A DNA stretch of 64,000 nt. It comes from Alphaproteobacteria bacterium UBA6187 (lineage in GTDB: Bacteria > Pseudomonadota > Alphaproteobacteria > Rickettsiales > UBA6187). This document shows, one piece after another, positions 5,513 to 44,896 of this stretch. Location of the stretch: assembly GCA_002422795.1 (NCBI GenBank), contig DITJ01000004.1, positions 31,329 to 95,328 of the forward strand, given 5' to 3'. The position numbers were made by a program, and so were the translations under genes. How positions within the stretch are numbered: the first letter of the stretch is position 1; every line of letters starts with the position of its first letter. The notes below the pieces were generated by a model. The model was not told the origin of the DNA, did not search any database, and saw nothing but the letters and a program-made list of their open reading frames with translations.

Positions 5513-6574
5513 ATGGTGGTGGCTATGAAGCTTTTTAAATCATTAAGATATCTGAATGTTAAGACCCTATATAAGGAAAAATTAGGCGGATATTCTGCAA
5601 ATGAGCTTATAGAAAAGGTAAAGCCCTTTGTAGAACAGAAAACGAAGGAACTTATAGAGGAGCTTAAAATTGCCAGGGGAAAATTAAAAGACATTCCGGG
5701 CACTAATTATAAACTTGGTCTGCACCATTTAAGGGCAGGAAACCTTGATGATGCGATATTGCGCTTTAAAATGGTAACATTCCTTGTGCCTGAAAAAGCC
5801 GAGGCGCATTATTATTTGGGTAAAAGCTTAATTATGAGCGGTGATTTGGAGGCCGCTAAAGTGGCGCTGGAAAAAGCTTTATCGCTAAAACCTGGTTTTC
5901 CGGAAGTTAAATATATAATGGACAAAATTACCGCCCCTGAATCTATAGAAATAATTCCCGCAGATATGATGGCTGAGCATATTGCATGGAGCCAAACCCC
6001 TACCGAAGAAGAAAGTGAGTTAAGGGAAGAGCGGGACAGGGCGTTGGTAACTATTTTGCTGGCTAATGTTACTGATAAAAACCCTAATCTGGAAGTGCTG
6101 GATCTGGGCTGCGCAAGTGGCGGCCGTGGCAGGTTATTAAAGGGCAGGGATGTCGCCAGGAGAATTGTTGGCGTGGATATGTCAGAAAAGGAAATTGAAA
6201 AGGCAAAAGCCAAAATGTCTTATGACGAATTAGTATATAATAATGTGCAGGCAGCGCCTGTATTTTCTTATCTTGCAGGCAATACTGAAAAATTTGATGT
6301 TGTAATGGCCGGGGATGTATTTTCATACCAGGGAAATCTGGATGATATTTTTATAAATATTATAAAGTCATTAAAAACTGGTGGCATTTTTGCTGGTATT
6401 TTTAGGAAAGAAGAGCTTGAAAGCGGGTATAGGCTGGATGTTACCAAAGATAAGTTTGTGCATTCCATACAATATTATGAAGATGCTCTGGAAAAGGCCG
6501 GTTTTAAAGTCTTGGATAAAAAAGAAAAAAATATAGGCGAAAAATATAATATTATTATTTCTAACAGTGCCTAG
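5513..6574 (+). CDS. TPR-repeat / class I SAM-dependent methyltransferase fusion protein
   Basis: TPR-like helices (AEAHYYLGKSLIMSGDLEAAKVALEKALSLKP) plus SAM motif I VLDLGCASGGRG and FDVVMAGDVFSY. The start could instead be the ATG at 5525. Confidence 0.75.
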   Translation: MVVAMKLFKSLRYLNVKTLYKEKLGGYSANELIEKVKPFVEQKTKELIEELKIARGKLKDIPGTNYKLGLHHLRAGNLDDAILRFKMVTFLVPEKAEAHYYLGKSLIMSGDLEAAKVALEKALSLKPGFPEVKYIMDKITAPESIEIIPADMMAEHIAWSQTPTEEESELREERDRALVTILLANVTDKNPNLEVLDLGCASGGRGRLLKGRDVARRIVGVDMSEKEIEKAKAKMSYDELVYNNVQAAPVFSYLAGNTEKFDVVMAGDVFSYQGNLDDIFINIIKSLKTGGIFAGIFRKEELESGYRLDVTKDKFVHSIQYYEDALEKAGFKVLDKKEKNIGEKYNIIISNSA

Positions 6575-30008: not shown

Positions 30009-31505
30009 TTATTGTTGGGCAATTTTTTCGTCTTCATTGTTGCCGCGAGAGGCAATTTTTGTATTAGCAAGGCCGCTTTCCTGTTTTTGGGGCTTAAATG
30101 TTGGTATTGGAACTTTTCTTCCGTTTATCCCAACCCGTATAGGTTTAAGCTCATCCATGTCGCTTATTGCCTCAATAGAGGAGGCTATTTTTGTACCGAC
30201 AATGCCGATTTCCTTAAATGTTGGCACCGGAACCTGTTTTCCATTTACCCCAACCCGTATAGGTTTGAACTCATCCATTTCGCTTATTGCCTCAATAGAG
30301 GAGGTTATTTTTGTACCGACAATGCCGACTTCCTTAAATGTTGGCACCGGAACCTGTTTTCCATTTACCCCAACCCGCTTAGGTTTAAACTCATCAATAT
30401 TTCCTACTTCCTCTATATCAATAGAGGAAGCAGCCTGTTCGTAAGAAACTACATTCACTTCCTGTGATGGCTGGGTATTTGTTGCACTTATTACCGGTTC
30501 ATTAACATCAGTGACTGTTTTTGCAGATGCCGCTACATTGCGTGAAAATGGTGCTTTGTCATTAGTTGAGCCGCCATTATTTGAAGATGTAGTTGTAGGT
30601 TTATCGGTATTCTTTTGTTTTTTATTCGAGGCTGTATTTTTTGTAGTATTGGTATTTGAAACTTCAGAACTTGCAGATTTTCCATTGGAAATATTATAAA
30701 ACGCCTGATCCAGAAGCTTAACCATATTTGCATCGCGGCTTTTAATGCTCCTCCCCCCCATCACAACACCTACCAGGCTTTTGCCGGAGCGGTTTGCTGA
30801 AGTTACCAGGTTAAAGCCCGAAGCCCTTATGTAGCCAGTTTTAAGGCCATCAGCGCCACGGTAGTTTTTAGTAACCCTGTTGTGCGAGAAAATGGTTTGC
30901 CCCTTATATTTGAAGCTTGAGCGGGAAAATAATGGGTAATATTGCGGATAATCCCTTTTAAGTGCTACAGCAAGGCGCGCCATGTCATAGGCTGTAGTAA
31001 CCTGTTTATTATTAGGAAGCCCGGAAGCATTCGCAAAATTGGTGTTTTTCATGCCAAGTTTCTTTGCGGTCTCGGTCATTTTTAATGCAAATTTTGGCTC
31101 GGAGCCGCTAATTGCTTCAGCAAGCACCACAGAGGCATCATTGGCAGATTTTATAACTACTGCGTTAATGGCATCCTGCATGGTGATTGTTTGCCCGGCG
31201 CGCAATGCTATAGAGCTTGGTGACTGGCTTGCTGCAAAGGAAGAAACACGCAGTTTCTGATTTATGTTCAGGGTGCCTTGTTCCAGGGATTGAAAAGCAA
31301 GGTATAACGTCATCATTTTAGTAAGTGAGGCCGGATATCGTTTCTTCCCGGCATTTTCCTGATGCAGCACACTGCCTGTCTCTGCATCAATTACTAAAGA
31401 GGCGTATTTTTCATTTTCAGCGGCTGCATAGCATGGCGCCGCGAATAAAGCCAATACTAATAAGCCAGTTACAGACTTTAAAATACTTTTTTTAAAGAAT
31501 CCCAC
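30009..31505 (-). CDS. D-alanyl-D-alanine carboxypeptidase (S11, PBP5/6-like) with a repeat-bearing C-terminal extension
   Basis: Signal peptide plus SxxK (SLTK), SxN (SAN) and KTG (LKTGY). The C-terminus carries three 40-aa tandem repeats (DEFKPxRVGVNGKQVPVPTFKExGIVGTKIxSSIEAIS). Confidence 0.85.
   Translation of the reverse strand: MGFFKKSILKSVTGLLVLALFAAPCYAAAENEKYASLVIDAETGSVLHQENAGKKRYPASLTKMMTLYLAFQSLEQGTLNINQKLRVSSFAASQSPSSIALRAGQTITMQDAINAVVIKSANDASVVLAEAISGSEPKFALKMTETAKKLGMKNTNFANASGLPNNKQVTTAYDMARLAVALKRDYPQYYPLFSRSSFKYKGQTIFSHNRVTKNYRGADGLKTGYIRASGFNLVTSANRSGKSLVGVVMGGRSIKSRDANMVKLLDQAFYNISNGKSASSEVSNTNTTKNTASNKKQKNTDKPTTTSSNNGGSTNDKAPFSRNVAASAKTVTDVNEPVISATNTQPSQEVNVVSYEQAASSIDIEEVGNIDEFKPKRVGVNGKQVPVPTFKEVGIVGTKITSSIEAISEMDEFKPIRVGVNGKQVPVPTFKEIGIVGTKIASSIEAISDMDELKPIRVGINGRKVPIPTFKPQKQESGLANTKIASRGNNEDEKIAQQ
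30093..30440. repeat. 3 x 120-bp tandem repeat inside the PBP gene
   Basis: The marker cttaaatgttgg recurs at 30093, 30213 and 30333. Copies 2 and 3 are nearly identical. Confidence 0.85.
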
Positions 31506-33456: not shown

Positions 33457-34308
33457 TTATTTATCTTCAAATGCAAATGCAATTTTATATGAGAATGTTT
33501 TCTTGTCGGAATAATAGTTATCTGGCACCGGTATTACCGGGTCTGCATCGGCAATCATCTGGGTTAGGGCGTTATCAAGAACCTTCGAGCCTGTACTTTT
33601 TATAATTCTTGAAAGCAATATCCTGCCTTTCCTGTCTATTTTTATAAATATTTCGCCTGTACCTGTAATATGATTTTCTTTTGCGTAAGCCGGGTATTTC
33701 TTAAATTTATAAAGCCAAAGCGGCAGAAGTTGTTCATATGAAGTTATTTTTCCTGCATCTTTATTAACGGAATTTCCGATAACAACCCCCTCTTCTTCAT
33801 CTGCACTATCAGCCTGCTTGCCCGCTGCTGGCGCATATTCCTGCAATGGAACGGGTAAATCTATATTTTTAGCTGCCTGTTCTAAAACACGTTCAAATTC
33901 CTGTTGTTCGCCTAAAGAGGAGGCATCGCCCTTTTCAGCATTATGAGCAAGAGAGGCAATATTTTTGCCTGATTTTTCTATATCGCCGTTATTGTTTATA
34001 GAAGTGGTATCTTTTTTATTTTCCGGACTTTTATTTAGATAGGCTGCCTGGCCAGTTCTTGTGCTGTTGCCAGCCATTTCTTTTTGTGCTGCTGCGGAAA
34101 CCCCTGCATTGTAAGATGTATATTTTTGTATGCTGGCGGCATTGCCGGCTCTTGCCTTATCCTGTATTCCAAGTTTTACCCTCACCTTTTTGTAGCCTTC
34201 CGGCTCGGCTTTATCAGGTATTGTGAATAAAACCGTGAGGACAAAAAGATGCACCGCAAACGAGAGCAGTAAAGTTATACCAAAATATTTTTGCTGCTTA
34301 TGCTTCAT
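33457..34308 (-). CDS. tonB: TonB family energy transducer
   Basis: N-terminal TM segment, a low-complexity linker, and a C-terminal TonB domain (YPAYAKENHITGTGEIFIKIDRKGRI). Confidence 0.75.
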   Translation of the reverse strand: MKHKQQKYFGITLLLSFAVHLFVLTVLFTIPDKAEPEGYKKVRVKLGIQDKARAGNAASIQKYTSYNAGVSAAAQKEMAGNSTRTGQAAYLNKSPENKKDTTSINNNGDIEKSGKNIASLAHNAEKGDASSLGEQQEFERVLEQAAKNIDLPVPLQEYAPAAGKQADSADEEEGVVIGNSVNKDAGKITSYEQLLPLWLYKFKKYPAYAKENHITGTGEIFIKIDRKGRILLSRIIKSTGSKVLDNALTQMIADADPVIPVPDNYYSDKKTFSYKIAFAFEDK

Positions 34309-34311
34309 TCT

Positions 34312-34716
34312 TTATTTCACAATCTTAGTAATAATTGAAACGTCACTGCCGCCAACATTTTCTATTGTTTTCATAACCCATATAAGGTCTTTGGAAGTCA
34401 CTTCTGCATCTGATTTTATTATCAGTTCTTTTCCTTTATTTTCAAGGACTAATGTGTTTATTATGGTGGAAAAATCTTTTCTTGCAACAAAATCGTCATT
34501 TACAGCAAGTCTACCATCTTTATGCATATATATAACGCTAACCCTTTGTGGTTTTGCGACGCCTTTTTTAGAAGCATCCGGTAAATTAAGTGCAAACATG
34601 TCTGTTTTTTCAATAGTCCCTGCAACCATAAAAAAGGTAAGCAGAAGGAAAATTATATTTACCAGTGGAATAAGGTTTATTTCCTTTCGGCCGGTTCTTG
34701 CTTTATTTTCCAGCAT
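34312..34716 (-). CDS. exbD: ExbD/TolR family protein (second copy)
   Basis: EINLIPLVNIIFLLLTFFMV TM motif. ATG 34716 was preferred over 34752 to limit overlap with the upstream gene. Confidence 0.8.
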   Translation of the reverse strand: MLENKARTGRKEINLIPLVNIIFLLLTFFMVAGTIEKTDMFALNLPDASKKGVAKPQRVSVIYMHKDGRLAVNDDFVARKDFSTIINTLVLENKGKELIIKSDAEVTSKDLIWVMKTIENVGGSDVSIITKIVK

Positions 34717-35122
34717 TTTCAATATCCTCCGCAAGTGATATATTTTTACCACCGCTAGATTTTATGGAATCTATCGCGGTCACAACATCCTGCACTGAAG
34801 CAGTTTTCTTACTTGATACCACAATCTCGGCTTCTGTGAATTTTTCCAGAAGCGGTTTTATTTTTTCGTCTAATTGCAGTAAATTATATTCTTTGCCATC
34901 TAAAAGGAACTTTCCCGAGCCGGTTAAGGTTACAAGAATGGTTTTGCTTTTAGCCGCGCCAGACTCACTGTCCTTGGAATCATTAGAAAGATTAAGGTTC
35001 AATATTTCCATATGCAGGAATTGGGTAGTAAGCATAAAAAACAACAGTAGAACAATTAAAATATCTACAAGCGAAGTTATATTTATGGTTATACGTTTTT
35101 TCGGTTTTTCGCCAAAGTTCAT
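34703..35122 (-). CDS. exbD: ExbD/TolR family protein (first copy)
   Basis: INITSLVDILIVLLLFFML TM motif plus a periplasmic domain. Confidence 0.8.
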   Translation of the reverse strand: MNFGEKPKKRITINITSLVDILIVLLLFFMLTTQFLHMEILNLNLSNDSKDSESGAAKSKTILVTLTGSGKFLLDGKEYNLLQLDEKIKPLLEKFTEAEIVVSSKKTASVQDVVTAIDSIKSSGGKNISLAEDIENAGK

Positions 35123-35127
35123 AAGAA

Positions 35128-35199
35128 TAGTTGCTAGTTGCTAGTTGCTAGTTGCTAGTGGCTGGGTACTAGTAACTAGTAACTAGCAACTAGCAACTA
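35128..35199. repeat. repeat-arm hairpin, (TAGTTGC)x4 facing (CTAGTAAC/CTAGCAAC)x4
   Basis: It fills the exbB-exbD spacer and ends 5 nt from the exbD ATG. TAG recurs at period 7, so it falls in all three frames on both strands. Confidence 0.9.
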
Positions 35200-35201
35200 A
35201 A

Positions 35202-35831
35202 TTAATTTACACTACGCGCCATTATGCACATAACAGCATCTTTTATTGTCGCCCGCACGGAATCTATACGGCCTTCTAATATATAATGTGCAGCAAGTGA
35301 TGGTATGGCAACTGCAAGACCTGCAACGGTTGCAATTAATGCTTCCCATATTCCGCCTGCAAGCAGCGCCGGGTCTACGCCGGAACCGGTTTGGCTAATA
35401 CCTGCAAATACTTTTACCATGCCGGTAACAGTGCCAAGAAGCCCAAGAAGCGGGGCTATATTAGCAATCATTTCCAGCCCGCGCAAATGAGTTTCATACT
35501 GGCGTATTTCTCTGATTGCAGTGCTCTCAACAATCCTTATCCGCTTTTCATCCGTAAGCGCCCTGTTGCTAACGGCGTTAATAGCTGTTTCAATAACTTT
35601 TGCGGCAGGGCCTTTGTTATTGCCTGCTATATTCATGGCTTCGGCCATTTTGTTATCTGCAACGGCTGCGATTATTTTATCTATAAACGCAGTGGCAAGT
35701 GCGCCGGTTGCCCAGAACTGGTATATTTTATACATTATTACAGCCATAACATAAACGGAAAGAACCAATATAACCGGCATAACAACGCCGCCTTTTGCCA
35801 GTAATTCTGTGAGTATCATATTAATTTCCAA
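35202..35831 (-). CDS. exbB: MotA/TolQ/ExbB proton-channel protein
   Basis: 3 TM segments and the conserved LGLLGTVTGM motif. Confidence 0.85.
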   Translation of the reverse strand: MEINMILTELLAKGGVVMPVILVLSVYVMAVIMYKIYQFWATGALATAFIDKIIAAVADNKMAEAMNIAGNNKGPAAKVIETAINAVSNRALTDEKRIRIVESTAIREIRQYETHLRGLEMIANIAPLLGLLGTVTGMVKVFAGISQTGSGVDPALLAGGIWEALIATVAGLAVAIPSLAAHYILEGRIDSVRATIKDAVMCIMARSVN

Positions 35832-36000
35832 ATAATATTAACATTTCTATTGCTGGTATTTACAGCAAGCATATTGATGCAGCCTAAAATACTTATACTA
35901 TAGTAGCTTCTATTTTGAAATTAGCAATTGCGAATAAATGCTTTATCAACTACAATTTACCCATGTGCAATATAGGTAATTAGGGCGGGGTGTTATAGCA

Positions 36001-38538
36001 ATGGCTAACAAGAAGTTTTCAGCTCGCACTATAGGTGATATAGAAGAAATAGAAGTTGAGTCGATAGAGCAGGATATGTCGGATATTATAGAGGATGAGC
36101 CTCTTCCTGTAGAAGAAGCTACAGAAATCAATAAAGTTACCAATCCCCTTAAAAAGACGCTAAAGCGCATTATTGCAGGTGCGGTAATAATAGTGCTTGC
36201 TGTAGTGCTTTTCTTTCTTGGCGGAGTTTTCGGTTCGGGAGAGGGAATATCAACTATCGCCCCGTCGCCTGTTAATCCAGGAAATAATAATAAACTAGTA
36301 TACGTAACCGGTGCTGCTCTTGAGCAGGAGTTTACCGATCCCATGTTTAATGTTTCCGCCAGGGGTCTGGGGCTTGAGCGCCTGGTAGAAATGTACCAGT
36401 GGAGCCTGGAAAAAGATACTTATATAAAAAAATGGTCCAGTGAGCCAATTGCAATATCTGATGAGGATGCAAAAAATAAGGGTTTTATAAATCCGGCAGA
36501 ACTGCCTTTCTTCTCTGATAAATGGCTGGCGGATAAGGTAATGATTGGCGATTTCAATATTTCCCCTGAGCTTGTAAAGCAGTTGAGTAATTCAACCCCC
36601 CTTGCTGTTACAGAGGAGAATTTCAATAAACTTAATGAAGATGGAAAAAACGCATTTAAACTTTTTGAGGGCGGTTATTTCTTTGGAATAGACCCCGCAA
36701 ATCCCCATATTGGCGATTTAAGGATTACCTTTAAAGCTTCTGCTGCCGGCCAACTTACTGTACTTGCGAAGCAATCTGCAAATTCATTGGAGCCATATAT
36801 TGGCAAGAATGGACTTGTTGGAATATTACGCGCTGGGAATCATGACCTTGCCGCAATGAAACAGGGTATCGTTGCCAGTGGAAATCTGATGCTAACTATA
36901 GCAATGCGTGCAGTGTCGGTTTTATGCTTAATAATTGGCGGCCTGATAATTATAGGTAAAAACCCTTTCCGTAAAAAAGAAAAAATCCAGGAAGGTAACT
37001 CCATCTCTCCTATGATAGTCCGGGAGGAAACAGAAAGTTATGTAGATGCGGAGGAAGATGTCCAGGTTGCCGATGACGAGGAGTATGACATTCCTACGGA
37101 TATTATCGAGCCTAATGATATAATGGTAACAGAAACTCCAACTATTAAAGAAACTCGGCCTTCTACCTATGTTGATCCTGTTTTAATGCGTCTATCTACC
37201 ACTGATGAAGATGGTAAAAAAAGGAATGTTAATATTCCGGTAATAGAAAAAACGGAAGCGCCTGCGCCACTTGAATTTGAAATGGAAGATTCTAATCACG
37301 ATATTTATGCGGGTGAAGAGTCTAAGCAGCATCAATCTTTAGGGGAATATGAAAATAAACCCGGTTCAACTGGTAATAACGCATATGTAAGTATGGACAA
37401 GGGGAATCAGCCTGGAACGACTTATGAGCCGAGAGCAGAATCCAATCGTTATGTAAGCAGCGGGTATTCAAAAGAATACGAAGATGAAATGCCAGATGGG
37501 GTTGATGTTATTAGTGATGGCGGCTTTGAAGAGATGGCCGGTGATATTAATTCGGACGTAGCTGAACAAAGCAATTCTTTCGATAGCTACCAAAATCCTT
37601 TTTCTGCGCCGAGCCATACTCTTATGGAAGAGGTAAGTTATCTTGATAATTCAACCCAAATTCCTGACGAGGTAGAGGTTATTTCTGAAGAAGAAGATGC
37701 CCCTGAATCTCTTTGGGAGGCTAAGGAGCCGCTGCATTCTTTAAGTTCTGATGAATTGCCAGATAATATAAGCGACAACTCGGAAGAGCCTGTATTTGCT
37801 GAGCATGATGCGCTGCAAAACATTCTATCGCCTCTTTCAACAGCCCATGATTTGCCTGATGCTCAAATCACTCCTGAGCCGGAATTGCCGTCATGGGAGG
37901 AGGCTGAGCTAGAGGAAGAAGATAATGGTCAAGCCAGCTTACCTGCGCTTCCGCCGCTACCTGATTTCCTAAGTTTCAAGAATGCGCCTGAGCCGGAATT
38001 GCCATCATGGGAGGAGCCTGAGCTGGAGGAAGAAGATAATGTTCAAGCCAGCCTGCCTGCGCTTCCGCCATTGCCTGATTTCCTAAGTTTCAAAAATGCG
38101 CCTGAGCCGGAATTACCATCATGGGAGGAGCCTGAGCTGGAGGAAGAAGATAATGGTCAAGCCAGCCTGCCTGCGCTTCCGCCATTGCCTGATTTCCTAA
38201 GTTTCAAGAATCCGCCTGAGCCGGAATTGCCATCATGGGCTGAGCCTGAACTGGATGAAGAAAATGAAGAGCCAGCCAGCTTACCTGCGCTTCCGCCACT
38301 TCCTGATTTTGATAAATTTACAAGTCCGGTTGCGAAGCAAAGTGAGGCTATGGATAATATAGATTCAAATCCTTTATTTGATTTACCTAATATCCCGGAA
38401 GATTTTGATCCTAACCAGGAGATGCCTGCGTTATCAACCATGGATATTGAGGATTTTAGCGACACACCGATGGAAGAAGATGCTTATTCGCCATTTGATA
38501 CAGAAGATACGTTTGCCACTACCGAAGAAGAGAAATAA
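36001..38538 (+). CDS. TMEM43/DUF1625-like membrane protein with a ~520-aa acidic, proline-rich repeat tail
   Basis: The N-terminal half has a TM segment, VEMYQW, GFINPAELPF, GDLRITFKA, and a second TM (MLTIAMRAVSVLCLIIGGLIIIG). The C-terminal half is D/E-rich and includes 4 x 38-aa repeats. Confidence 0.65.
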   Translation: MANKKFSARTIGDIEEIEVESIEQDMSDIIEDEPLPVEEATEINKVTNPLKKTLKRIIAGAVIIVLAVVLFFLGGVFGSGEGISTIAPSPVNPGNNNKLVYVTGAALEQEFTDPMFNVSARGLGLERLVEMYQWSLEKDTYIKKWSSEPIAISDEDAKNKGFINPAELPFFSDKWLADKVMIGDFNISPELVKQLSNSTPLAVTEENFNKLNEDGKNAFKLFEGGYFFGIDPANPHIGDLRITFKASAAGQLTVLAKQSANSLEPYIGKNGLVGILRAGNHDLAAMKQGIVASGNLMLTIAMRAVSVLCLIIGGLIIIGKNPFRKKEKIQEGNSISPMIVREETESYVDAEEDVQVADDEEYDIPTDIIEPNDIMVTETPTIKETRPSTYVDPVLMRLSTTDEDGKKRNVNIPVIEKTEAPAPLEFEMEDSNHDIYAGEESKQHQSLGEYENKPGSTGNNAYVSMDKGNQPGTTYEPRAESNRYVSSGYSKEYEDEMPDGVDVISDGGFEEMAGDINSDVAEQSNSFDSYQNPFSAPSHTLMEEVSYLDNSTQIPDEVEVISEEEDAPESLWEAKEPLHSLSSDELPDNISDNSEEPVFAEHDALQNILSPLSTAHDLPDAQITPEPELPSWEEAELEEEDNGQASLPALPPLPDFLSFKNAPEPELPSWEEPELEEEDNVQASLPALPPLPDFLSFKNAPEPELPSWEEPELEEEDNGQASLPALPPLPDFLSFKNPPEPELPSWAEPELDEENEEPASLPALPPLPDFDKFTSPVAKQSEAMDNIDSNPLFDLPNIPEDFDPNQEMPALSTMDIEDFSDTPMEEDAYSPFDTEDTFATTEEEK
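37873..38316. repeat. 4 x 114-bp tandem repeat encoding PEPELPSWEEPELEEEDNGQASLPALPPLPDFLSFKNA
   Basis: The marker cctgagccggaatt recurs at 37873, 37987, 38101 and 38215. Confidence 0.9.
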
Positions 38539-38540
38539 AC

Positions 38541-39143
38541 ATGAAATTATCGGAAGAACAGATACTGAATGAATTTAGTAACGCAGAGGCTATATTAAAG
38601 GGACATTTCATCCTGTCTTCGGGGCTGCATAGTGATACTTATCTGCAATGCGCCAGGGTATTAATGGATACAAAACGTGCAGAAAAATTATGCAGCGAGC
38701 TTGCAAGGCAAGTTATTGATAAATTAGGTGTTGGCGCTATTGATATTGTTGCATCCCCGGCAATGGGCGGGGTTATAGTAGGTTATGAAATGGGCCGGCA
38801 GCTAAACAAGCCTTCAATATTTTGCGAGCGTGAAAATGGCGAGTTTGTGTTCCGCCGTGGTTTTTCTATAGAAAAAGGTATGAATGTGCTGGTGGTTGAG
38901 GATGTTGTAACTACAGGCAAATCATCACTTGAAGCTATTAATTGCATCAGGAATAGTGGTGGAAATGTAATTGCAGAGGCCTGCCTTGTTGATAGAAGCA
39001 ATGGTGCAGCGAATATTGGTATTCCGCTTTTTTCGCTTATTACGCTTGATGTAAAAACATATAACGAAAATAACCTTCCGCCTGAACTTCAGGCTATCCC
39101 CGGAATAAAGCCAGGCAGCAGATGGCTTGCTGCTGCGAAATAA
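38541..39143 (+). CDS. pyrE: orotate phosphoribosyltransferase
   Basis: PRPP-binding motif VLVVEDVVTTGKS and the N-terminal pattern GHFILSSGLHSDTYLQC. Confidence 0.9.
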   Translation: MKLSEEQILNEFSNAEAILKGHFILSSGLHSDTYLQCARVLMDTKRAEKLCSELARQVIDKLGVGAIDIVASPAMGGVIVGYEMGRQLNKPSIFCERENGEFVFRRGFSIEKGMNVLVVEDVVTTGKSSLEAINCIRNSGGNVIAEACLVDRSNGAANIGIPLFSLITLDVKTYNENNLPPELQAIPGIKPGSRWLAAAK

Positions 39144-39657: not shown

Positions 39658-41580
39658 ATGTGTAAGTGCTTTAACAAATATTTTGGATACCTGAAAAAAC
39701 AACAAGGCTTCAGCCTGATAGAGCTATCTGTTGTGATTAGTGTTGCAGCAGCTGCAACGGTTGGTGTCCTTTCCTGGACGCAACCAACAATAAGTACGAA
39801 TTCCACTAAAGCTATAGAAACCCGACATAAAATGCAGGAAGTGCAAAAGTCCATTGAAGCATTCAGAGTAAGAACAAAGCGCCTGCCTTGCCCTGCAGAC
39901 CCATTAATGCGTAGTGATAGCACGCGCTCTTCTATAGGTACTGATTACATAACCCCAACAGCTACCAGCCACGATTATTATATAAATAACTTCGGCATGG
40001 AAGATTTAGATACCACACAAAGCTCGGTAAATGGTGTTGATACACGCGGGGTTGATTGCCCTGTATCAGTCGGGGCAATACCGGTATTTTCACTCGGCCT
40101 GGATGAATCGTATATGCATGATGCCTGGGGAAGAAGGATGACTTATCATGTTGCCCCTACATTATGCGGGGCAGATACAGGAGTGCCAGGCTCCCCAACA
40201 GCTACAGACATAAGCATAAGCCAATCTATTGGATGCACTGATAATGACTATAAAAACAAAACAGGCAATATAACCGTAACCAACGGCAGCACGACCCTTA
40301 CAACTTCTTCTGCTTTTGTTCTTGTAAGCCACGGTGCGAACGGCGCTGGGGCATTTCTACCAAGCGGCACTAAGCTTGCTGCAAGCGGTAATGCTAATGA
40401 AGCAGAAAACAGTAATGGTGATACTACATACATAAAAGCTGACCAAAACGCAACTTTTGACGATATTGTGATATTTGCAACGCGCAATCAGATTGAAAGC
40501 CAGGTTAATCGCAAAAATATAAAAAATATTAGCGTTACAGATTGTGAAACAAATTCACAGGTGCTAAAAAATATCACCCTTACAGAGGCCGCGGCAATGA
40601 CGTCCGTTAATAGCTATACTCAACATAGCGGAGCAAAGAACACCGGCGACCAGATATTGCTAGGAATATTAAAAAACACCCAGAATATTTGCATTTCTTA
40701 TTATGGAGCAAGCGCTGCAACTATCAACGGAAAAACCTGGAGTGGCGCACAATGCCCTGGAAACAACAATCCTGGCAGTAATGGCTCAACTTATCTTACA
40801 ACAGATGGCTCATGTTTGTGCGATAGCGGTTTATGGGATGGCAACTGCACAACAACTTTTACACCAAAAAGCATTAGTGGGTTACAATTATGGATCGATG
40901 CAAACGATTCTACAACATTATTTACTGATCTGGCTTGTATGGACGGATCGCCTGCAAATAATGCATCTATAAAGTGCTGGAAAGATAAAAGTGGTAATAC
41001 TAATAACGCTATAGGTATCAATGCACCAATCTACAAAACAAATAGCATGAACGGAAAGGCGATAATAAGGTTTGATGGCCAGAATCTACTTGTAGGAACT
41101 TCACTTCTAAATTCTATAAATACAGGTAATGTTACAGTTTTTATTGTTGCAAAAAACAGCGATATAGGCAACTCAGTCCTTGTTGGAGTGCCTGATATTT
41201 CTGAGGTTAGATTTAATATTCATTTGCCATGGAGTGATGAAAATATCTATTGGGATTTTGGTTATATGGTTGGAGGAGGAGGAGGAAGAATCTTTAATTA
41301 CTGGGGAGGCTATGAAGGAACAACTTATGTATGGACATTTAATGCTGCTTATGGATCAGGAGTTGGATCTCAGAATATATGGCGCAATGGCACAAGAATC
41401 CAATCAAACACAACATCAAAAAACCCTTCTTATGGGACAACCTATGGCTTAAGTTTAGGTGGCAAAACAGGCGCCTATTTTTCAGGTGATCTTGCTGAAA
41501 TTACTATCTACAACACAGCACTTTCCGATACTGAAAGGCAAAACATTGAAACATACCTTAAGACCAAATGGGGAATCTAA
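39658..41580 (+). CDS. prepilin-type (GspG/type IV pilin-like) protein fused to one LamG-like module
   Basis: Class III signal QQG|FSLIELSVV with Glu at +5. GspG-like core (GAIPVFSLGLDESYMHDAWGRRMTYHV, FVLVSHGANGAGAF, FDDIVIFA). C-terminal LamG-like module (LQLWIDANDSTTLFT, IKCWKDKSGN, GDLAEITIYNTALSDTERQNIETYLKTKWGI). Confidence 0.7.
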   Translation: MCKCFNKYFGYLKKQQGFSLIELSVVISVAAAATVGVLSWTQPTISTNSTKAIETRHKMQEVQKSIEAFRVRTKRLPCPADPLMRSDSTRSSIGTDYITPTATSHDYYINNFGMEDLDTTQSSVNGVDTRGVDCPVSVGAIPVFSLGLDESYMHDAWGRRMTYHVAPTLCGADTGVPGSPTATDISISQSIGCTDNDYKNKTGNITVTNGSTTLTTSSAFVLVSHGANGAGAFLPSGTKLAASGNANEAENSNGDTTYIKADQNATFDDIVIFATRNQIESQVNRKNIKNISVTDCETNSQVLKNITLTEAAAMTSVNSYTQHSGAKNTGDQILLGILKNTQNICISYYGASAATINGKTWSGAQCPGNNNPGSNGSTYLTTDGSCLCDSGLWDGNCTTTFTPKSISGLQLWIDANDSTTLFTDLACMDGSPANNASIKCWKDKSGNTNNAIGINAPIYKTNSMNGKAIIRFDGQNLLVGTSLLNSINTGNVTVFIVAKNSDIGNSVLVGVPDISEVRFNIHLPWSDENIYWDFGYMVGGGGGRIFNYWGGYEGTTYVWTFNAAYGSGVGSQNIWRNGTRIQSNTTSKNPSYGTTYGLSLGGKTGAYFSGDLAEITIYNTALSDTERQNIETYLKTKWGI

Positions 41581-41602
41581 TAAACATAACATTAAAATAA
41601 TT

Positions 41603-44600
41603 ATGAAAGTTTTTTTAAGAAAGATTTACTCGTTATTCAAGGAAAGGGGTGGTTACACTCTTACCGAACTTTCTATATCTACCAGTATTATTGCGATGCT
41701 GGCAGTTGGCGGCCTGGCCGTTTTGCAGAAAAAAAATGATTCCGATAAATATAAGGAAACTTATACAAAAATTGCCGTGATAGATAATGCTGTTAAAAGT
41801 TTTATAATTGCTAAAAATTATGTACCATGTCCTGCATTTCCTTCAACTCTTGAAAATTCAACGACTTTTGGAAAGTCAGTTTCTTATGATGCAACTAATA
41901 AAATATGTAATGGCAGTGATCTTGCTGATCAAACTGGCATAGTGCCGGTAAGAACACTTGGCCTTACTGATGACTATTCTTATGATGGCTGGGGGCGTAA
42001 ATTTATGTTCCGCTCAGCATCAGGATCAGGATCTGCTACAGATTTTATCGCACCTAATTTTAGGGGAAATATTGCTATAGTCGATCTGAAAGGGGTTCAT
42101 AAAACTACCATAACCGATCCCCATCCATATAACGACGGCGCTATATATGTAATTATCAGCTATGGTGCAAATGGTAAGAATGTTGCTTATCGCAAGAATA
42201 ACGATACAGAGCCGCCATCGGCAGCTTCAGGTATTGAAGCAAAAAATACATCGCACAAAGAAAATGTATATGTACAAAATGAAAAAACCTCAGCATTTGA
42301 TGATATCGTATTATTCGGCACAAATGCAAGGCTACATAACCAGAAAATTACAGAATCTCCTATAAAAATTCCAGATATAACCTGCGATACTGCACAACAG
42401 ATTGTATCAGGCGGACGTAGCGCGACCACACTTAATAACTATGCAACAAGCAATAGTAATGCTTATGTGTCCCATGCTGATATTATTTATAAATCCTCTA
42501 CAATTCTTGCGGATTTATGCAAAAATAGAAAAAACACCGAAACTATAAAGCCTGACCGTATTAATGGATTGAAATTGTGGCTTGATGCTGGTGATGCCGC
42601 AACATTATTTACCAATAGCAATTGCACAGCAGGCGGAGTTCCCGCAAATAATGCATCTATATCATGCTGGAAAGATAAAAGCGGCAATGCTTATAATGCT
42701 ATAGCAGGTAATGCCCCAACTTACAGTGTAAATGCTATCAACGGCAAAGCTGTTTTATCATTTAACGGCACATCCAATTATTTGGACAACAGCACCTTTG
42801 CACTATCAACCACAGCAAGTATTTTTGCAGTTGCGTCCCCTGGAGCAGGTTCTGGCTTTAAAAGGATTATAAGTAATCACGCTAACTTTTATTTAGGTGC
42901 AGGTAATGCAACTAATTATTTTAGTAGCTTCTATGGTAATGGCTCTAGCTGGGGCACAACGGCAGATCATGGCGCAACCGGACTTCTGGATACTGGAAAA
43001 TACTATATACTAACTTCAATAAAGGATGCTACATATGACAGTCCTTACATAAATGGTTCAGCATTGGCAGCAAGGATAAATGCCATGAGCGCATTTTCTG
43101 ATGGATACAGGGTTGGCGCAAACAATGACACGCTAAATGATTTCTGGGACGGCAATATCGGGGAAATATTAATATATAATACCAATCTCTCGGAATCCAA
43201 CCGGCAAAAAGTTGGGGAATATTTAAGCAATAAATGGGCTATTCCACTCAATGCCGCTACAAAAACATGCGATACCGGAATGACCTTCCAAAGAACATCT
43301 TCAGATCCAGCAGGAAGCTGCAAATGCCCTCCCGGGCAACAATTTGTTGCTGACTTGAAAACAAACAACGCATGTTTTTCAACCGAAGCAAACACGCACT
43401 TTAGCAAATGTGTTAGTGTTAATTCATCACCAACATATAGCTCGCCACCTTCAACAAATAACATGGTCTTATGGCTTGATGCCAATGATTGCACTAAAGT
43501 TACACTTTCCGGCAGTGGAACAATTCCTCATGTAACTGGCTGGATGGATAAAAGCCCACTGGGTAATCATGCTACGCAAACAACATTAGCAAACATGCCT
43601 ACATATTTAAAAAATACTGTTAATGGAAAAGCGGTTATTCATTTCGATGGCAGCAGTTCTTACCTAGGCAACACAACCCTTGCGCTTCCAACCACAGCAA
43701 GTATTTTTGCGGTTGCTTCCACCGGTTCGGCAACCGGGAATAAAAGAATTATAAATAATGAAGTTAATTTCAATTTAAGTGCAGGCGCTACAACAACTAA
43801 TTATTTTGCTAGCTTTTATGGTAATAACTCCACTTGGGGATTTGAATCAGATCATGGTGCAGCTGGAATTATGAGTTCGGGAGCATACTATATACTAACT
43901 TCGGTAAATAGTGGAAGTGATAATGCCTATATAAATGGCACTGCGTTACCGGTAAGGACAAACGCTATGAGCGCCTTTTCTAATGGATACAGGGTCGGCG
44001 CACACCAGGCTGCCGTATCGGAATTATGGGATGGCAATATAGGGGAAATAATAATATATAACACCGCCATCACCAACCAGGAGCGTAGCAATATAGAAAA
44101 ATATCTTTCTTTTAAATGGGGCGTTCCATTACTACCTACCGATATAGAAAAAATTAATTTTGCCGATGCAAAGGGAGCAAGCCTTACATTATGGCTTGAT
44201 GCATCAGATACCACAACATTATTCACAGATGAGAATTGCGTAAATAAGGCATACGCATCCGATTTAATAGGCTGCTGGAAAGATAAAAGTGGCAATAACT
44301 ACCATGCAAAACAGGTGGAGAACAGAGCCAGGCCAGCTTACTCATTTGGCACGCAGACATCCCAACTTGGAACTACAATAATTTCCAACCCAACCCTTTT
44401 ATTCAATGGCACGAGTGATTACATGGATAATGCAAATTTAGCACTGCCTGCAAAAGTAAGTATTTTTGCTGTTGCAGCGCAAGGTGCTGCTCATGCCGAT
44501 ATCAAGCGTATTATAAGCAACCATCTTAATTTCCTTATAGGTGTTACGACAGCTAGCAAATTCATGACTAGGTATAGTAATGGCAGTAACTGGGCAGGTA

Positions 44601-44896
44601 GTAATATTGTCGACGCAGTATTAGATGATTACACATATTACGTACTTACTTCAATAAATGATGGCACGAATAATAATGCGGACGTAAATGGCGGAACATC
44701 TAACACAGATGCAAATGCCATGGCTGCTTTTTCTGATGGATATAGAATTGGTGCAAACGCTGCCGCAATAAATGAATTATGGGATGGAAATATAGGAGAA
44801 ATAATAATTTATAACACTAACCTATCTGCATCAAATAGAATTGCTGTTCAGCGCTACCTTGCTAATAAATGGGGAGTGGCAATTACAGTACCTTAA
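41603..44896 (+). CDS. prepilin-type (GspG/type IV pilin-like) protein fused to three LamG-like modules
   Basis: Start moved to ATG 41603 because the track start 41459 overlaps the upstream gene. Signal ERGG|YTLTELSIS with Glu at +5. Core GIVPVRTLGLTDDYSYDGWGRKFMF, IYVIISYGANGKN, FDDIVLFG. Three modules each run from LWLDAxD..CWKDKSGN to GNIGEIxIYNT...KWG(I/V). Confidence 0.7.
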   Translation: MKVFLRKIYSLFKERGGYTLTELSISTSIIAMLAVGGLAVLQKKNDSDKYKETYTKIAVIDNAVKSFIIAKNYVPCPAFPSTLENSTTFGKSVSYDATNKICNGSDLADQTGIVPVRTLGLTDDYSYDGWGRKFMFRSASGSGSATDFIAPNFRGNIAIVDLKGVHKTTITDPHPYNDGAIYVIISYGANGKNVAYRKNNDTEPPSAASGIEAKNTSHKENVYVQNEKTSAFDDIVLFGTNARLHNQKITESPIKIPDITCDTAQQIVSGGRSATTLNNYATSNSNAYVSHADIIYKSSTILADLCKNRKNTETIKPDRINGLKLWLDAGDAATLFTNSNCTAGGVPANNASISCWKDKSGNAYNAIAGNAPTYSVNAINGKAVLSFNGTSNYLDNSTFALSTTASIFAVASPGAGSGFKRIISNHANFYLGAGNATNYFSSFYGNGSSWGTTADHGATGLLDTGKYYILTSIKDATYDSPYINGSALAARINAMSAFSDGYRVGANNDTLNDFWDGNIGEILIYNTNLSESNRQKVGEYLSNKWAIPLNAATKTCDTGMTFQRTSSDPAGSCKCPPGQQFVADLKTNNACFSTEANTHFSKCVSVNSSPTYSSPPSTNNMVLWLDANDCTKVTLSGSGTIPHVTGWMDKSPLGNHATQTTLANMPTYLKNTVNGKAVIHFDGSSSYLGNTTLALPTTASIFAVASTGSATGNKRIINNEVNFNLSAGATTTNYFASFYGNNSTWGFESDHGAAGIMSSGAYYILTSVNSGSDNAYINGTALPVRTNAMSAFSNGYRVGAHQAAVSELWDGNIGEIIIYNTAITNQERSNIEKYLSFKWGVPLLPTDIEKINFADAKGASLTLWLDASDTTTLFTDENCVNKAYASDLIGCWKDKSGNNYHAKQVENRARPAYSFGTQTSQLGTTIISNPTLLFNGTSDYMDNANLALPAKVSIFAVAAQGAAHADIKRIISNHLNFLIGVTTASKFMTRYSNGSNWAGSNIVDAVLDDYTYYVLTSINDGTNNNADVNGGTSNTDANAMAAFSDGYRIGANAAAINELWDGNIGEIIIYNTNLSASNRIAVQRYLANKWGVAITVP

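Follow-up and report, generated by a model that had tools for sequence, protein, structure and literature searches.

A two-helix TMEM43-family protein with a motif-bearing acidic tail, predicted to be cytoplasmic, encoded beside exbB-exbD genes in an alphaproteobacterium

The stretch of DNA analysed here (the window) comprises 64,000 nucleotides (nt) of contig DITJ01000004.1 from Alphaproteobacteria bacterium UBA6187, and we have examined the product of one of its genes, an uninterrupted reading frame of 845 amino acids (aa) which begins with a folded membrane domain of the TMEM43 family and continues into a long, acidic, proline-rich tail. The exact protein (P0001) is held in public assemblies. 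It is a two-transmembrane variant of an uncharacterized family, distinguished by a disordered tail bearing short motifs and by genetic linkage to genes of the ExbB-ExbD type, and as such it is new. The parts of the gene and of its product are as follows, with the evidence for each in brackets (TM, transmembrane helix; pLDDT, predicted local distance difference test score of the AlphaFold model).

36001..38538, + strand: whole coding sequence, encoding 845 aa, a two-TM member of the TMEM43 family whose tail is long and acidic (open reading frame list)
36001..36141, + strand: N-terminal segment, aa 1-47, acidic, disordered and predicted to be cytoplasmic, with a basic patch at its end before TM1 (composition and charge; pLDDT ~35-55)
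36142..36234, + strand: TM1, aa 48-78, a signal-anchor helix (hydropathy; AlphaFold helix 49-78)
36235..36885, + strand: TMEM43 beta-rich domain, aa 79-295, predicted to be periplasmic (Pfam PF07787; AlphaFold; side from positive-inside counts)
36886..36954, + strand: TM2, aa 296-318, followed by a basic patch (hydropathy; AlphaFold helix 296-318; flank charges)
36955..38535, + strand: polyanionic, proline-rich, intrinsically disordered tail, aa 319-845, predicted to be cytoplasmic (composition; charge-hydropathy; pLDDT 30-40; topology prediction)
37489..37518, + strand: motif D, copy 1, MPDGVDVISD, aa 497-506 (pattern scan of subfamily tails)
37660..37689, + strand: motif D, copy 2, IPDEVEVISE, aa 554-563 (pattern scan of subfamily tails)
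37873..38328, + strand: tandem array of 4 x 114 bp, encoding 4 x 38 aa (Tandem Repeats Finder; unit-by-unit comparison)
38374..38424, + strand: motif B, LFDLPNIPEDFDPNQEM, aa 792-808 (conservation in 21 subfamily representatives)
38485..38535, + strand: motif C, at the C-terminal end, YSPFDTEDTFATTEEEK, aa 829-845 (SPF/DPF conservation in the subfamily)

A preliminary description of this gene, made from the sequence alone, had recognized a TMEM43/DUF1625 domain, two TM segments and an extremely D/E/P-rich tail. The family assignment was borne out by Pfam, in which PF07787 (TMEM43) matched aa 140-318 with an E-value of 2.5e-31 (109.4 bits against a curated cut-off of 23.3), the match covering profile positions 27-204 of 250 and ending there; NCBIfam has no model for the protein. 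Hydropathy and the AlphaFold model agree on exactly two hydrophobic segments, at approximately aa 48-78 and 296-318. A single TM helix therefore follows the domain where canonical TMEM43 proteins have three, and this defines a two-TM subfamily without thereby excluding homology to TMEM43. The model of the folded part, built with a 104-sequence alignment, is confident (mean pLDDT 88, rising to 95-98 across the beta-rich domain). Foldseek found no significant structural relative of the periplasmic domain in the PDB (best E 0.098, TM-score ~0.1), nor did a family profile search find a PDB sequence relative of the TMEM43 domain, so that the domain itself gives no functional clue. An anti-phage defence role was set aside, since searching the window protein against the PADLOC defence-system hidden Markov models (HMMs) returned no family at E <=0.1. 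We found no literature on any bacterial TMEM43 homologue.

Word-index homology searches with the protein were nearly blind (4, 3 and 1 matches), being swamped by the low-complexity tail, and yielded two long-tailed orthologues, P0002 (790 aa) and P0003 (666 aa); an exhaustive HMM search was therefore needed. A profile built from these two proteins and the window protein, run exhaustively against 1.84 billion cluster representatives, recovered 3113 representatives of the family. The majority are ~390 aa long and have four TM helices, whereas approximately 36 have two TM helices and an acidic, proline-rich tail of 230-575 aa; in the latter, TM3 and TM4 are gone and the disordered polyanionic tail follows directly after TM2. 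When a neighbour-joining tree was computed from the periplasmic domain alone, 33 of the 36 two-TM long-tailed members formed one pure clade, from which it follows that the tail arose essentially once. The tailed proteins appear, on this sequence evidence, to be a lineage-specific and mostly monophyletic alphaproteobacterial subfamily. Two members carry metagenome-assembled genome (MAG) source labels, one ‘Alphaproteobacteria bacterium’ and the other ‘Rickettsiaceae bacterium’, and contigs of the clade carry many biosynthetic genes (those for DAHP synthase, LeuCD, DapA, LysA and GlnA), a poor fit with the reduced genomes of obligate intracellular bacteria. The contig of one relative, L002, also carries MipZ and an ATP synthase operon with two b subunits. 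The assignment to the Alphaproteobacteria was drawn from the two labels together with these L002 genes. The window contains a single tRNA and no rRNA, and scans of GTDB species genomes with protein patterns and with an exact 53-mer of the gene gave no match. In tblastn of GlnA against plasmids and chromids the best matches were to Methylobacterium, Sinorhizobium and Shinella at 65%, little higher than E. coli at 62%.

The orientation of the protein in the membrane can be predicted from its flanking charges. In the window protein the basic flanks lie on the terminal sides of both helices (KKTLKR before TM1 and KNPFRKKEK after TM2), and across 34 subfamily members the mean number of K+R residues per 15-aa flank was 4.26 before TM1, 0.76 after TM1, 0.91 before TM2 and 4.12 after TM2. 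Because of this bias, the positive-inside rule predicts an N-in/C-in arrangement, and it does so in all 34 members scored. The N-termini of relatives, at 30-90 aa, are hydrophilic and are not signal peptides. We infer a signal-anchor/stop-transfer hairpin in which the N-terminus and the tail would be cytoplasmic and the TMEM43 domain periplasmic; with an N-terminal TM helix and a large beta-rich domain assigned by K+R bias to the non-cytoplasmic side, the protein has the layout expected of a TMEM43 protein up to TM2. For human TMEM43/LUMA, experiments have described the termini as nucleoplasmic or cytoplasmic and the large domain as lumenal (PMC3198171, PMC12295021), and canonical bacterial members, with their 1+3 TM helices and short basic C-termini, are compatible with the same N-in/C-in orientation. 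The side faced by the tail is most probably the cytoplasm of the bacterium itself and not a host cell, and the positive-inside counts speak against the preliminary view of a tail lying outside the cell, a cytoplasmic tail being the very outcome which that description had set against it.

The composition of the tail is as extreme as had been described. Over aa 323-845 (523 aa) it consists of 16.4% E, 12.0% P, 9.4% D and 9.4% S, with 135 D+E residues against 25 K+R and a net charge of -110; a charge-hydropathy plot puts it on the disordered side of the boundary, and its pLDDT is ~30-40. Towards the C-terminus lie four in-frame repeat units (37873-37986, 37987-38100, 38101-38214 and 38215-38328), each of 38 aa and each composed of PEPELPSW and an acidic run followed by a motif that we term A (LPALPPLPDF..). 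Tandem Repeats Finder reports a period of 114 bp and 3.8 copies over 37873..38309, with 91% matches and a score of 692. The four repeats and the 114-bp period noted beforehand thus stand, and only the end then given for the array, 38316, was slightly short of 38328. Units 1-3 are 91-96% identical to one another at the DNA level, while unit 4 shares 77-79% identity with the others. Units 1 and 2 differ at 10 positions, of which eight are synonymous, and the same figures hold for units 1 and 3; this preponderance indicates that selection acts on the peptide sequence of the repeat. The one motif A of orthologues (LPPxPDFDKLF, e.g. LPPPPDFDKLF) has its counterpart in unit 4 (LPPLPDFDKF), and units 1-3 are recent copies carrying a DFLSFKN variant. 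The Trp-acidic half of the repeat has no counterpart in the orthologues P0002 and P0003. Both contigs that carry the exact window protein encode an identical sequence, with no difference in repeat number between them.

Comparison of the subfamily tails defines four short motifs. Motif D, (M/L/F)-P-x-G-(V/I)-(E/D)-Φ-(I/V)-(G/S), occurs 37 times in 25 of 36 tails, against 0.03 instances expected from shuffled sequences, and reaches the most distant members. Motif A takes the form LPPxPDF(D/S)x(L/I)F or PPLPxP(D/E)(F/I)Lxx(K/R), and is present once per repeat unit in the window protein, i.e. four times in all; relatives carry LPPxPDF at the corresponding place. Motif B, F-(D/E)-L-P-x-(I/V)-P-x-(D/E)-F-D-P-x-x-E-M, was found in 21 subfamily representatives; it lies 32-63 aa from the C-terminus in every case, and its P, F, D, P, E and M do not vary. 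It is also the only 10-residue stretch of the tail to reach a pLDDT >=50 in the model, a behaviour typical of binding elements that may fold on contact. Motif C, seen in 19 of 36 members, opens with SPF/DPF, once or twice, and runs on through acidic residues to a terminal E(N/E)K(K). Fifteen proteins possess motif D as well as motif B, and every one of them keeps the collinear order D-A-B-C; the spacers between the motifs are poorly conserved and fast-evolving. Motif number varies as well: P0014 (767 aa) and P0164 (855 aa), which fall within one 90% cluster, are 100% identical save for an 88-aa insertion that adds one A+B unit, a case of strain-level copy-number variation, and the tail of P0002 has two copies of motif A and two of motif B. 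Gain of motif-bearing units is still under way within the clade. Motifs D, A, B and C are, we suggest, docking sites for one or more partner proteins.

The genes and signals around the TMEM43 gene include the following.

33457..35831, - strand: exbB - exbD - exbD - tonB-family cluster, divergent from the TMEM43 gene (Pfam MotA_ExbB, ExbD twice and TonB_C; NCBIfam)
35928..35956, + strand: likely sigma-70-type promoter, TTGCGA, 17-nt spacer, TACAAT (consensus scan; putative function)
38541..39143, + strand: pyrE, orotate phosphoribosyltransferase, beginning 3 bp after the TMEM43 stop codon (NCBIfam TIGR01367, E 2.6e-68)

The conserved neighbours of the gene are exbB-exbD(-exbD-tonB-mazG) and pyrE. 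In the window the TonB_C protein is encoded at 33457..34308, separately from the TMEM43 protein, and mazG lies beyond the cluster. An exbB-exbD cluster adjoins the gene in seven of nine subfamily genomes, being divergent in six (the window, L002, L005, L006, L008 and the contig of P0003, on which tonB is absent from the cluster) and convergent in L011, where the order is tonB-exbB-exbD followed by a TonB-dependent receptor. This linkage is specific to the tailed subfamily: tblastn with the window ExbB, ExbD and TonB found no exbB-exbD-tonB neighbour at any of 80 canonical TMEM43 loci, many of them on short contigs, and two annotated plasmid-borne canonical loci likewise have no adjacent exbB-exbD. 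The window ExbB and ExbD score far below the NCBIfam equivalog cut-offs for TolQ/ExbB and therefore represent a divergent paralogue. The sole conserved block in the exbB/TMEM43 intergenic region is the promoter-like TTGCGA-17-TACAAT; the same block, reading CAATTGCGAATAAAT...ACTACA, also precedes the orthologues of L002 and L005, and L006 has a comparable TTGCAC-17-TAAAAT. Visual inspection of this intergenic region, of which no formal scan was made, showed no iron-responsive palindrome of the Fur, Irr or RirA type. Downstream, pyrE follows the gene in four of nine subfamily genomes, and there is no terminator-like site between the two genes in the window, which are probably co-transcribed. 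The pilin-LamG genes further on (39658..44896) adjoin the gene only in the window genome and in no relative examined; the ~9-kb block of surface or host-interaction proteins envisaged in the preliminary description is therefore not a conserved unit, and we have abandoned it.

Several details of these neighbours merit record in their own right. Between exbB and the first exbD is a gap of 79 bp which is taken up by tandem heptamers (35128..35199), five of TAGTTGC and then four to five of TAGTAAC/TAGCAAC; the latter are reverse complements of the former, giving a long inverted repeat and a potential ~30-bp hairpin in the operon transcript. The two exbD reading frames (34312..34752 and 34703..35122, - strand) overlap by ~50 nt if the longest frames are used; public gene calls begin the second exbD at 34716, leaving an overlap of 14 nt which suggests translational coupling. 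In L006 a ParE-toxin/Phd-antitoxin pair (6024..6546) separates the two exbD genes, the cluster being conserved in other respects. The two pilin-LamG proteins (39658..41580 and 41603..44896, + strand) have a prepilin-type N-terminal methylation motif followed by LamG/concanavalin-like modules, one in the first and three in the second, which start L.LW(L/I)DA.D and end …IIYNT…(Y)L..KWG(V/I). On the L007, L009, L011 and P0003 contigs, the TMEM43 gene is found either near dnaA/dnaN/recF, a rhodanese gene and sdhE or near clpB, pointing to an origin-proximal region and a local gene order common to the clade. Elsewhere in the window, the gene for an S11 D-Ala-D-Ala carboxypeptidase, a penicillin-binding protein (coding sequence 30009..31505, - strand), contains a 120-bp tandem repeat (30093..30395; 2.5 copies, 91% identity) that encodes 40-aa units (…DEFKPxRVGVNGKQVPVPTFKE.GIVGTKI.SSIEAIS…) near the C-terminus; it is the second of the window's envelope proteins to show recent tandem repeats.

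How far the window protein resembles characterized or classified proteins depends on which part of it is considered. Canonical bacterial TMEM43 proteins, such as WP_012340174.1 of Methylobacterium radiotolerans (pMRAD05) and WP_096873442.1 of Phaeobacter piscinae, have a homologous TM1, beta-rich domain and TM2, with 27-31% identity over the domain, but are ~390 aa long, end in three TM helices and a short basic C-terminus, and lack the acidic tail, the D/A/B/C motifs and the exbB-exbD linkage. Human TMEM43/LUMA, a protein of the inner nuclear membrane and endoplasmic reticulum, belongs to the same Pfam family and has the same inferred orientation (PMC3198171, PMC12295021), yet it has four TM helices, short termini and no long acidic tail. 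The window protein has no equivalent of the TM3/loop-2 region of LUMA, where a pore-forming residue and the site of the S358L disease mutation are located (PMC12295021). With TonB and TolA the window protein shares an inner-membrane anchor, a long extended low-complexity region rich in proline or charge, and a gene situated beside exbB-exbD-type genes; however, those proteins are anchored by a single TM helix at the N-terminus, extend through the periplasm and finish in a folded domain, whereas the window protein has two TM helices and a predicted cytoplasmic tail. It has no His in TM1. With two TM helices and no match to TonB_C in Pfam or NCBIfam, it does not qualify as a TonB-family protein. 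Disordered linkers with short docking peptides occur in the FtsZ C-terminal linker, the ZipA linker and the RNase E scaffold, and the magnetosome protein MamJ is acidic and repetitive. The principle held in common is that of a disordered region presenting short peptides at or near the membrane, with fast-evolving spacers and variable repeats; these proteins differ from the window protein in having other folded domains, none of them fused to TMEM43, and no sequence homology to it.

The explanation to which we incline, and which we hold to be modestly probable, is that the window protein carries a membrane-anchored, multivalent docking tail on the cytoplasmic side of an inner-membrane TMEM43-family protein. 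The tail motifs, kept in a fixed order and separated by fast-evolving spacers, would make it a flexible membrane-tethered platform for partner proteins, and the recent tandem triplication of the 38-aa unit would have raised valency by taking motif A from one copy to four. A weaker suggestion, drawn from the genetic linkage, is that the TMEM43 protein may work with or regulate the divergent ExbB-ExbD(-TonB) proton-motor system. A number of observations weigh against this explanation. The topology of the tail is a prediction; the periplasmic domain, with no structural relative for its model, provides no functional clue; and the searches gave no partner, a motif B-C profile finding nothing among PDB chains at E <=10 and a word-index search turning up only another subfamily fragment. 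The gene has no exbB-exbD cluster beside it in L007 and L009, and inheritance of gene order within one clade could account for most of the linkage. Several of the tail motifs superficially resemble eukaryotic linear motifs. One relative (MCE3232557.1) is labelled as from a ‘Rickettsiaceae bacterium’ MAG, and a host-associated lifestyle is conceivable for part of the clade. A stronger version of the docking-tail explanation would make the two-TM tailed TMEM43 protein the hitherto unrecognized third component of a dedicated ExbB-ExbD-type proton motor, in which the periplasmic domain would be linked across the membrane to the multivalent tail and the tail would recruit cytoplasmic partners. We consider this distinctly unlikely. 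Were it true, envelope energy transduction would be wired to a cytoplasmic process through a cytoplasm-directed counterpart of TonB/TolA, and it would give a first functional handle on the bacterial ancestors of TMEM43/LUMA.

It is important that other readings of the tail are considered. One is that it has no specific partner and works through its bulk physical properties: it could form an entropic polyanionic brush or spacer beneath the inner membrane, buffer divalent cations or polyamines, or mimic nucleic acid and hold basic proteins or the nucleoid close to the membrane or at a distance from it. The net charge of -110 over 523 aa, the disorder, the free variation in tail length (230-575 aa) and spacers among relatives, and the partner searches without result are all as such a role would have it. 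Against it, clusters with <50% identity to one another agree in the sequence of four motifs, in their order and in how far these lie from the C-terminus, but not in the spacers, and a plain polyanion predicts neither the invariant P-F-D-P-E-M of motif B nor the mostly synonymous differences between repeat units; we regard this reading as rather unlikely. Within the docking-tail explanation, motif A could mimic the conserved C-terminal peptide of FtsZ, (D/E)-I-P-A-F-L-R-K-Q, so that the tail would bind membrane anchors or regulators of FtsZ and be linked to cell division. Variants of motif A in several members (P-L-P-D-F-L-S-F-K, P-P-P-F-L-A-K-K and P-P-P-F-L-S-K-Q) do share [IL/P]-P-x-F-L-x-x-[KR/Q] with that peptide, and a disordered acidic or proline-rich linker ending in a short peptide is the layout of the alphaproteobacterial FtsZ C-terminus. 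The match is of only 4-5 residues, was spotted after the fact and does not extend to the other flavour of motif A (PDFDKLF, PDFDSLF) carried by approximately half of the members, and we give the idea little credence. Nor are we persuaded that the tail is periplasmic, with motif D (an acidic and a small residue ahead of hydrophobic residues in alternation, e.g. EGIEIIG) acting as a TonB box, its beta-strand pairing with the TonB C-terminal domain encoded next door. Motif D does alternate in the manner of TonB boxes (ETITVTA and DTLVVTA, for instance), and the genetic linkage to exbB-exbD-tonB is specific. This reading, however, needs an N-out/C-out arrangement, contrary to the charge bias and to the orientation of human TMEM43 (PMC12295021), and would place the conserved TMEM43 domain in the cytoplasm; furthermore, the P0003 genome keeps the adjacent exbB-exbD with no tonB there. 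We have rejected it on topology, and think it very improbable.

The possibility raised by the preliminary description, that an exposed tail uses eukaryotic linear motifs to hijack cytoskeletal or adaptor proteins of a host in concert with the pilin-LamG block, deserves fuller discussion. The LPPLP element, at aa 650, 688, 726 and 764, fits the expressions for EVH1 ([FYWL]PP[ALIVTFY]P) and WW-group-II (PPLP) ligands in all four units and is conserved in relatives; only 0.04 such matches are expected in the shuffled tail with the repeat collapsed to one unit, so that it is not an artefact of composition. Short patterns of the EVH1/WW type are, however, not specific, and of the polyproline ligands first proposed those for SH3 were not recovered, since regular expressions found neither class I nor class II consensus in the tail. 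By the same kind of search, motif D can be read as a SUMO-interaction-like pattern, V-x-V-I-acidic elements in relatives being of this kind, and motif C of relatives contains DPF, the AP-2 ear pattern, with DPF/SPF occurring in pairs; these are low-information shapes in a sequence that is one-quarter acidic, and by topology they would not reach a host. The MAG labelled Rickettsiaceae and an ankyrin-repeat gene on the P0003 contig are in keeping with a host-associated role. The likeness to Arp2/3-activating factors (the WASP family, Rickettsia RickA and Listeria ActA) is limited to a Trp-containing acidic region and proline-rich stretches. The Trp lies in an LPSWEE context 70-215 aa from the C-terminus, acidic residues following and not preceding it, and the Trp-acidic half of the repeat is not conserved; the tail contains no WH2 or V element (ELM-style WH2 expression; L[KR][KR][VTA]), no recognizable connector of the WCA/VCA type, and no match to [DE][DE]W[DE], to the kinesin-type W-acidic motif or to a run of five prolines. 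The defining features of an Arp2/3 activator thus appear to be lacking, and the acidic-W ‘A’ motif is not supported. Exposure of the motifs to host cytosol is likewise made improbable by the positive-inside counts in 34 members, by the two-TM hairpin that is basic on its terminal sides and by the want of a signal peptide, and the biosynthetic genes on clade contigs and the unconserved pilin-LamG neighbours fit poorly with host mimicry, which we judge to be most unlikely.

A cytoplasmic docking tail is accordingly the reading that we take forward, and its interest is twofold. Bacterial TMEM43 homologues are widespread, as the 3113 cluster representatives attest, and have no known function, although their presumed human relative is a nuclear-envelope protein with a part in cardiomyopathy. 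To our knowledge, arrays of linear motifs on long disordered regions are well studied in eukaryotes and sparsely documented in bacteria, and it would be useful to have a clear case from bacteria in which the membrane anchor is defined. The tail also counsels caution, in that eukaryote-like motif shapes can arise in proteins which, by their topology, never meet a host. For the TMEM43 family, this subfamily offers handles in the form of four tractable motifs, ongoing change in the copy number of motif-bearing units and a specific genetic link to ExbB-ExbD.

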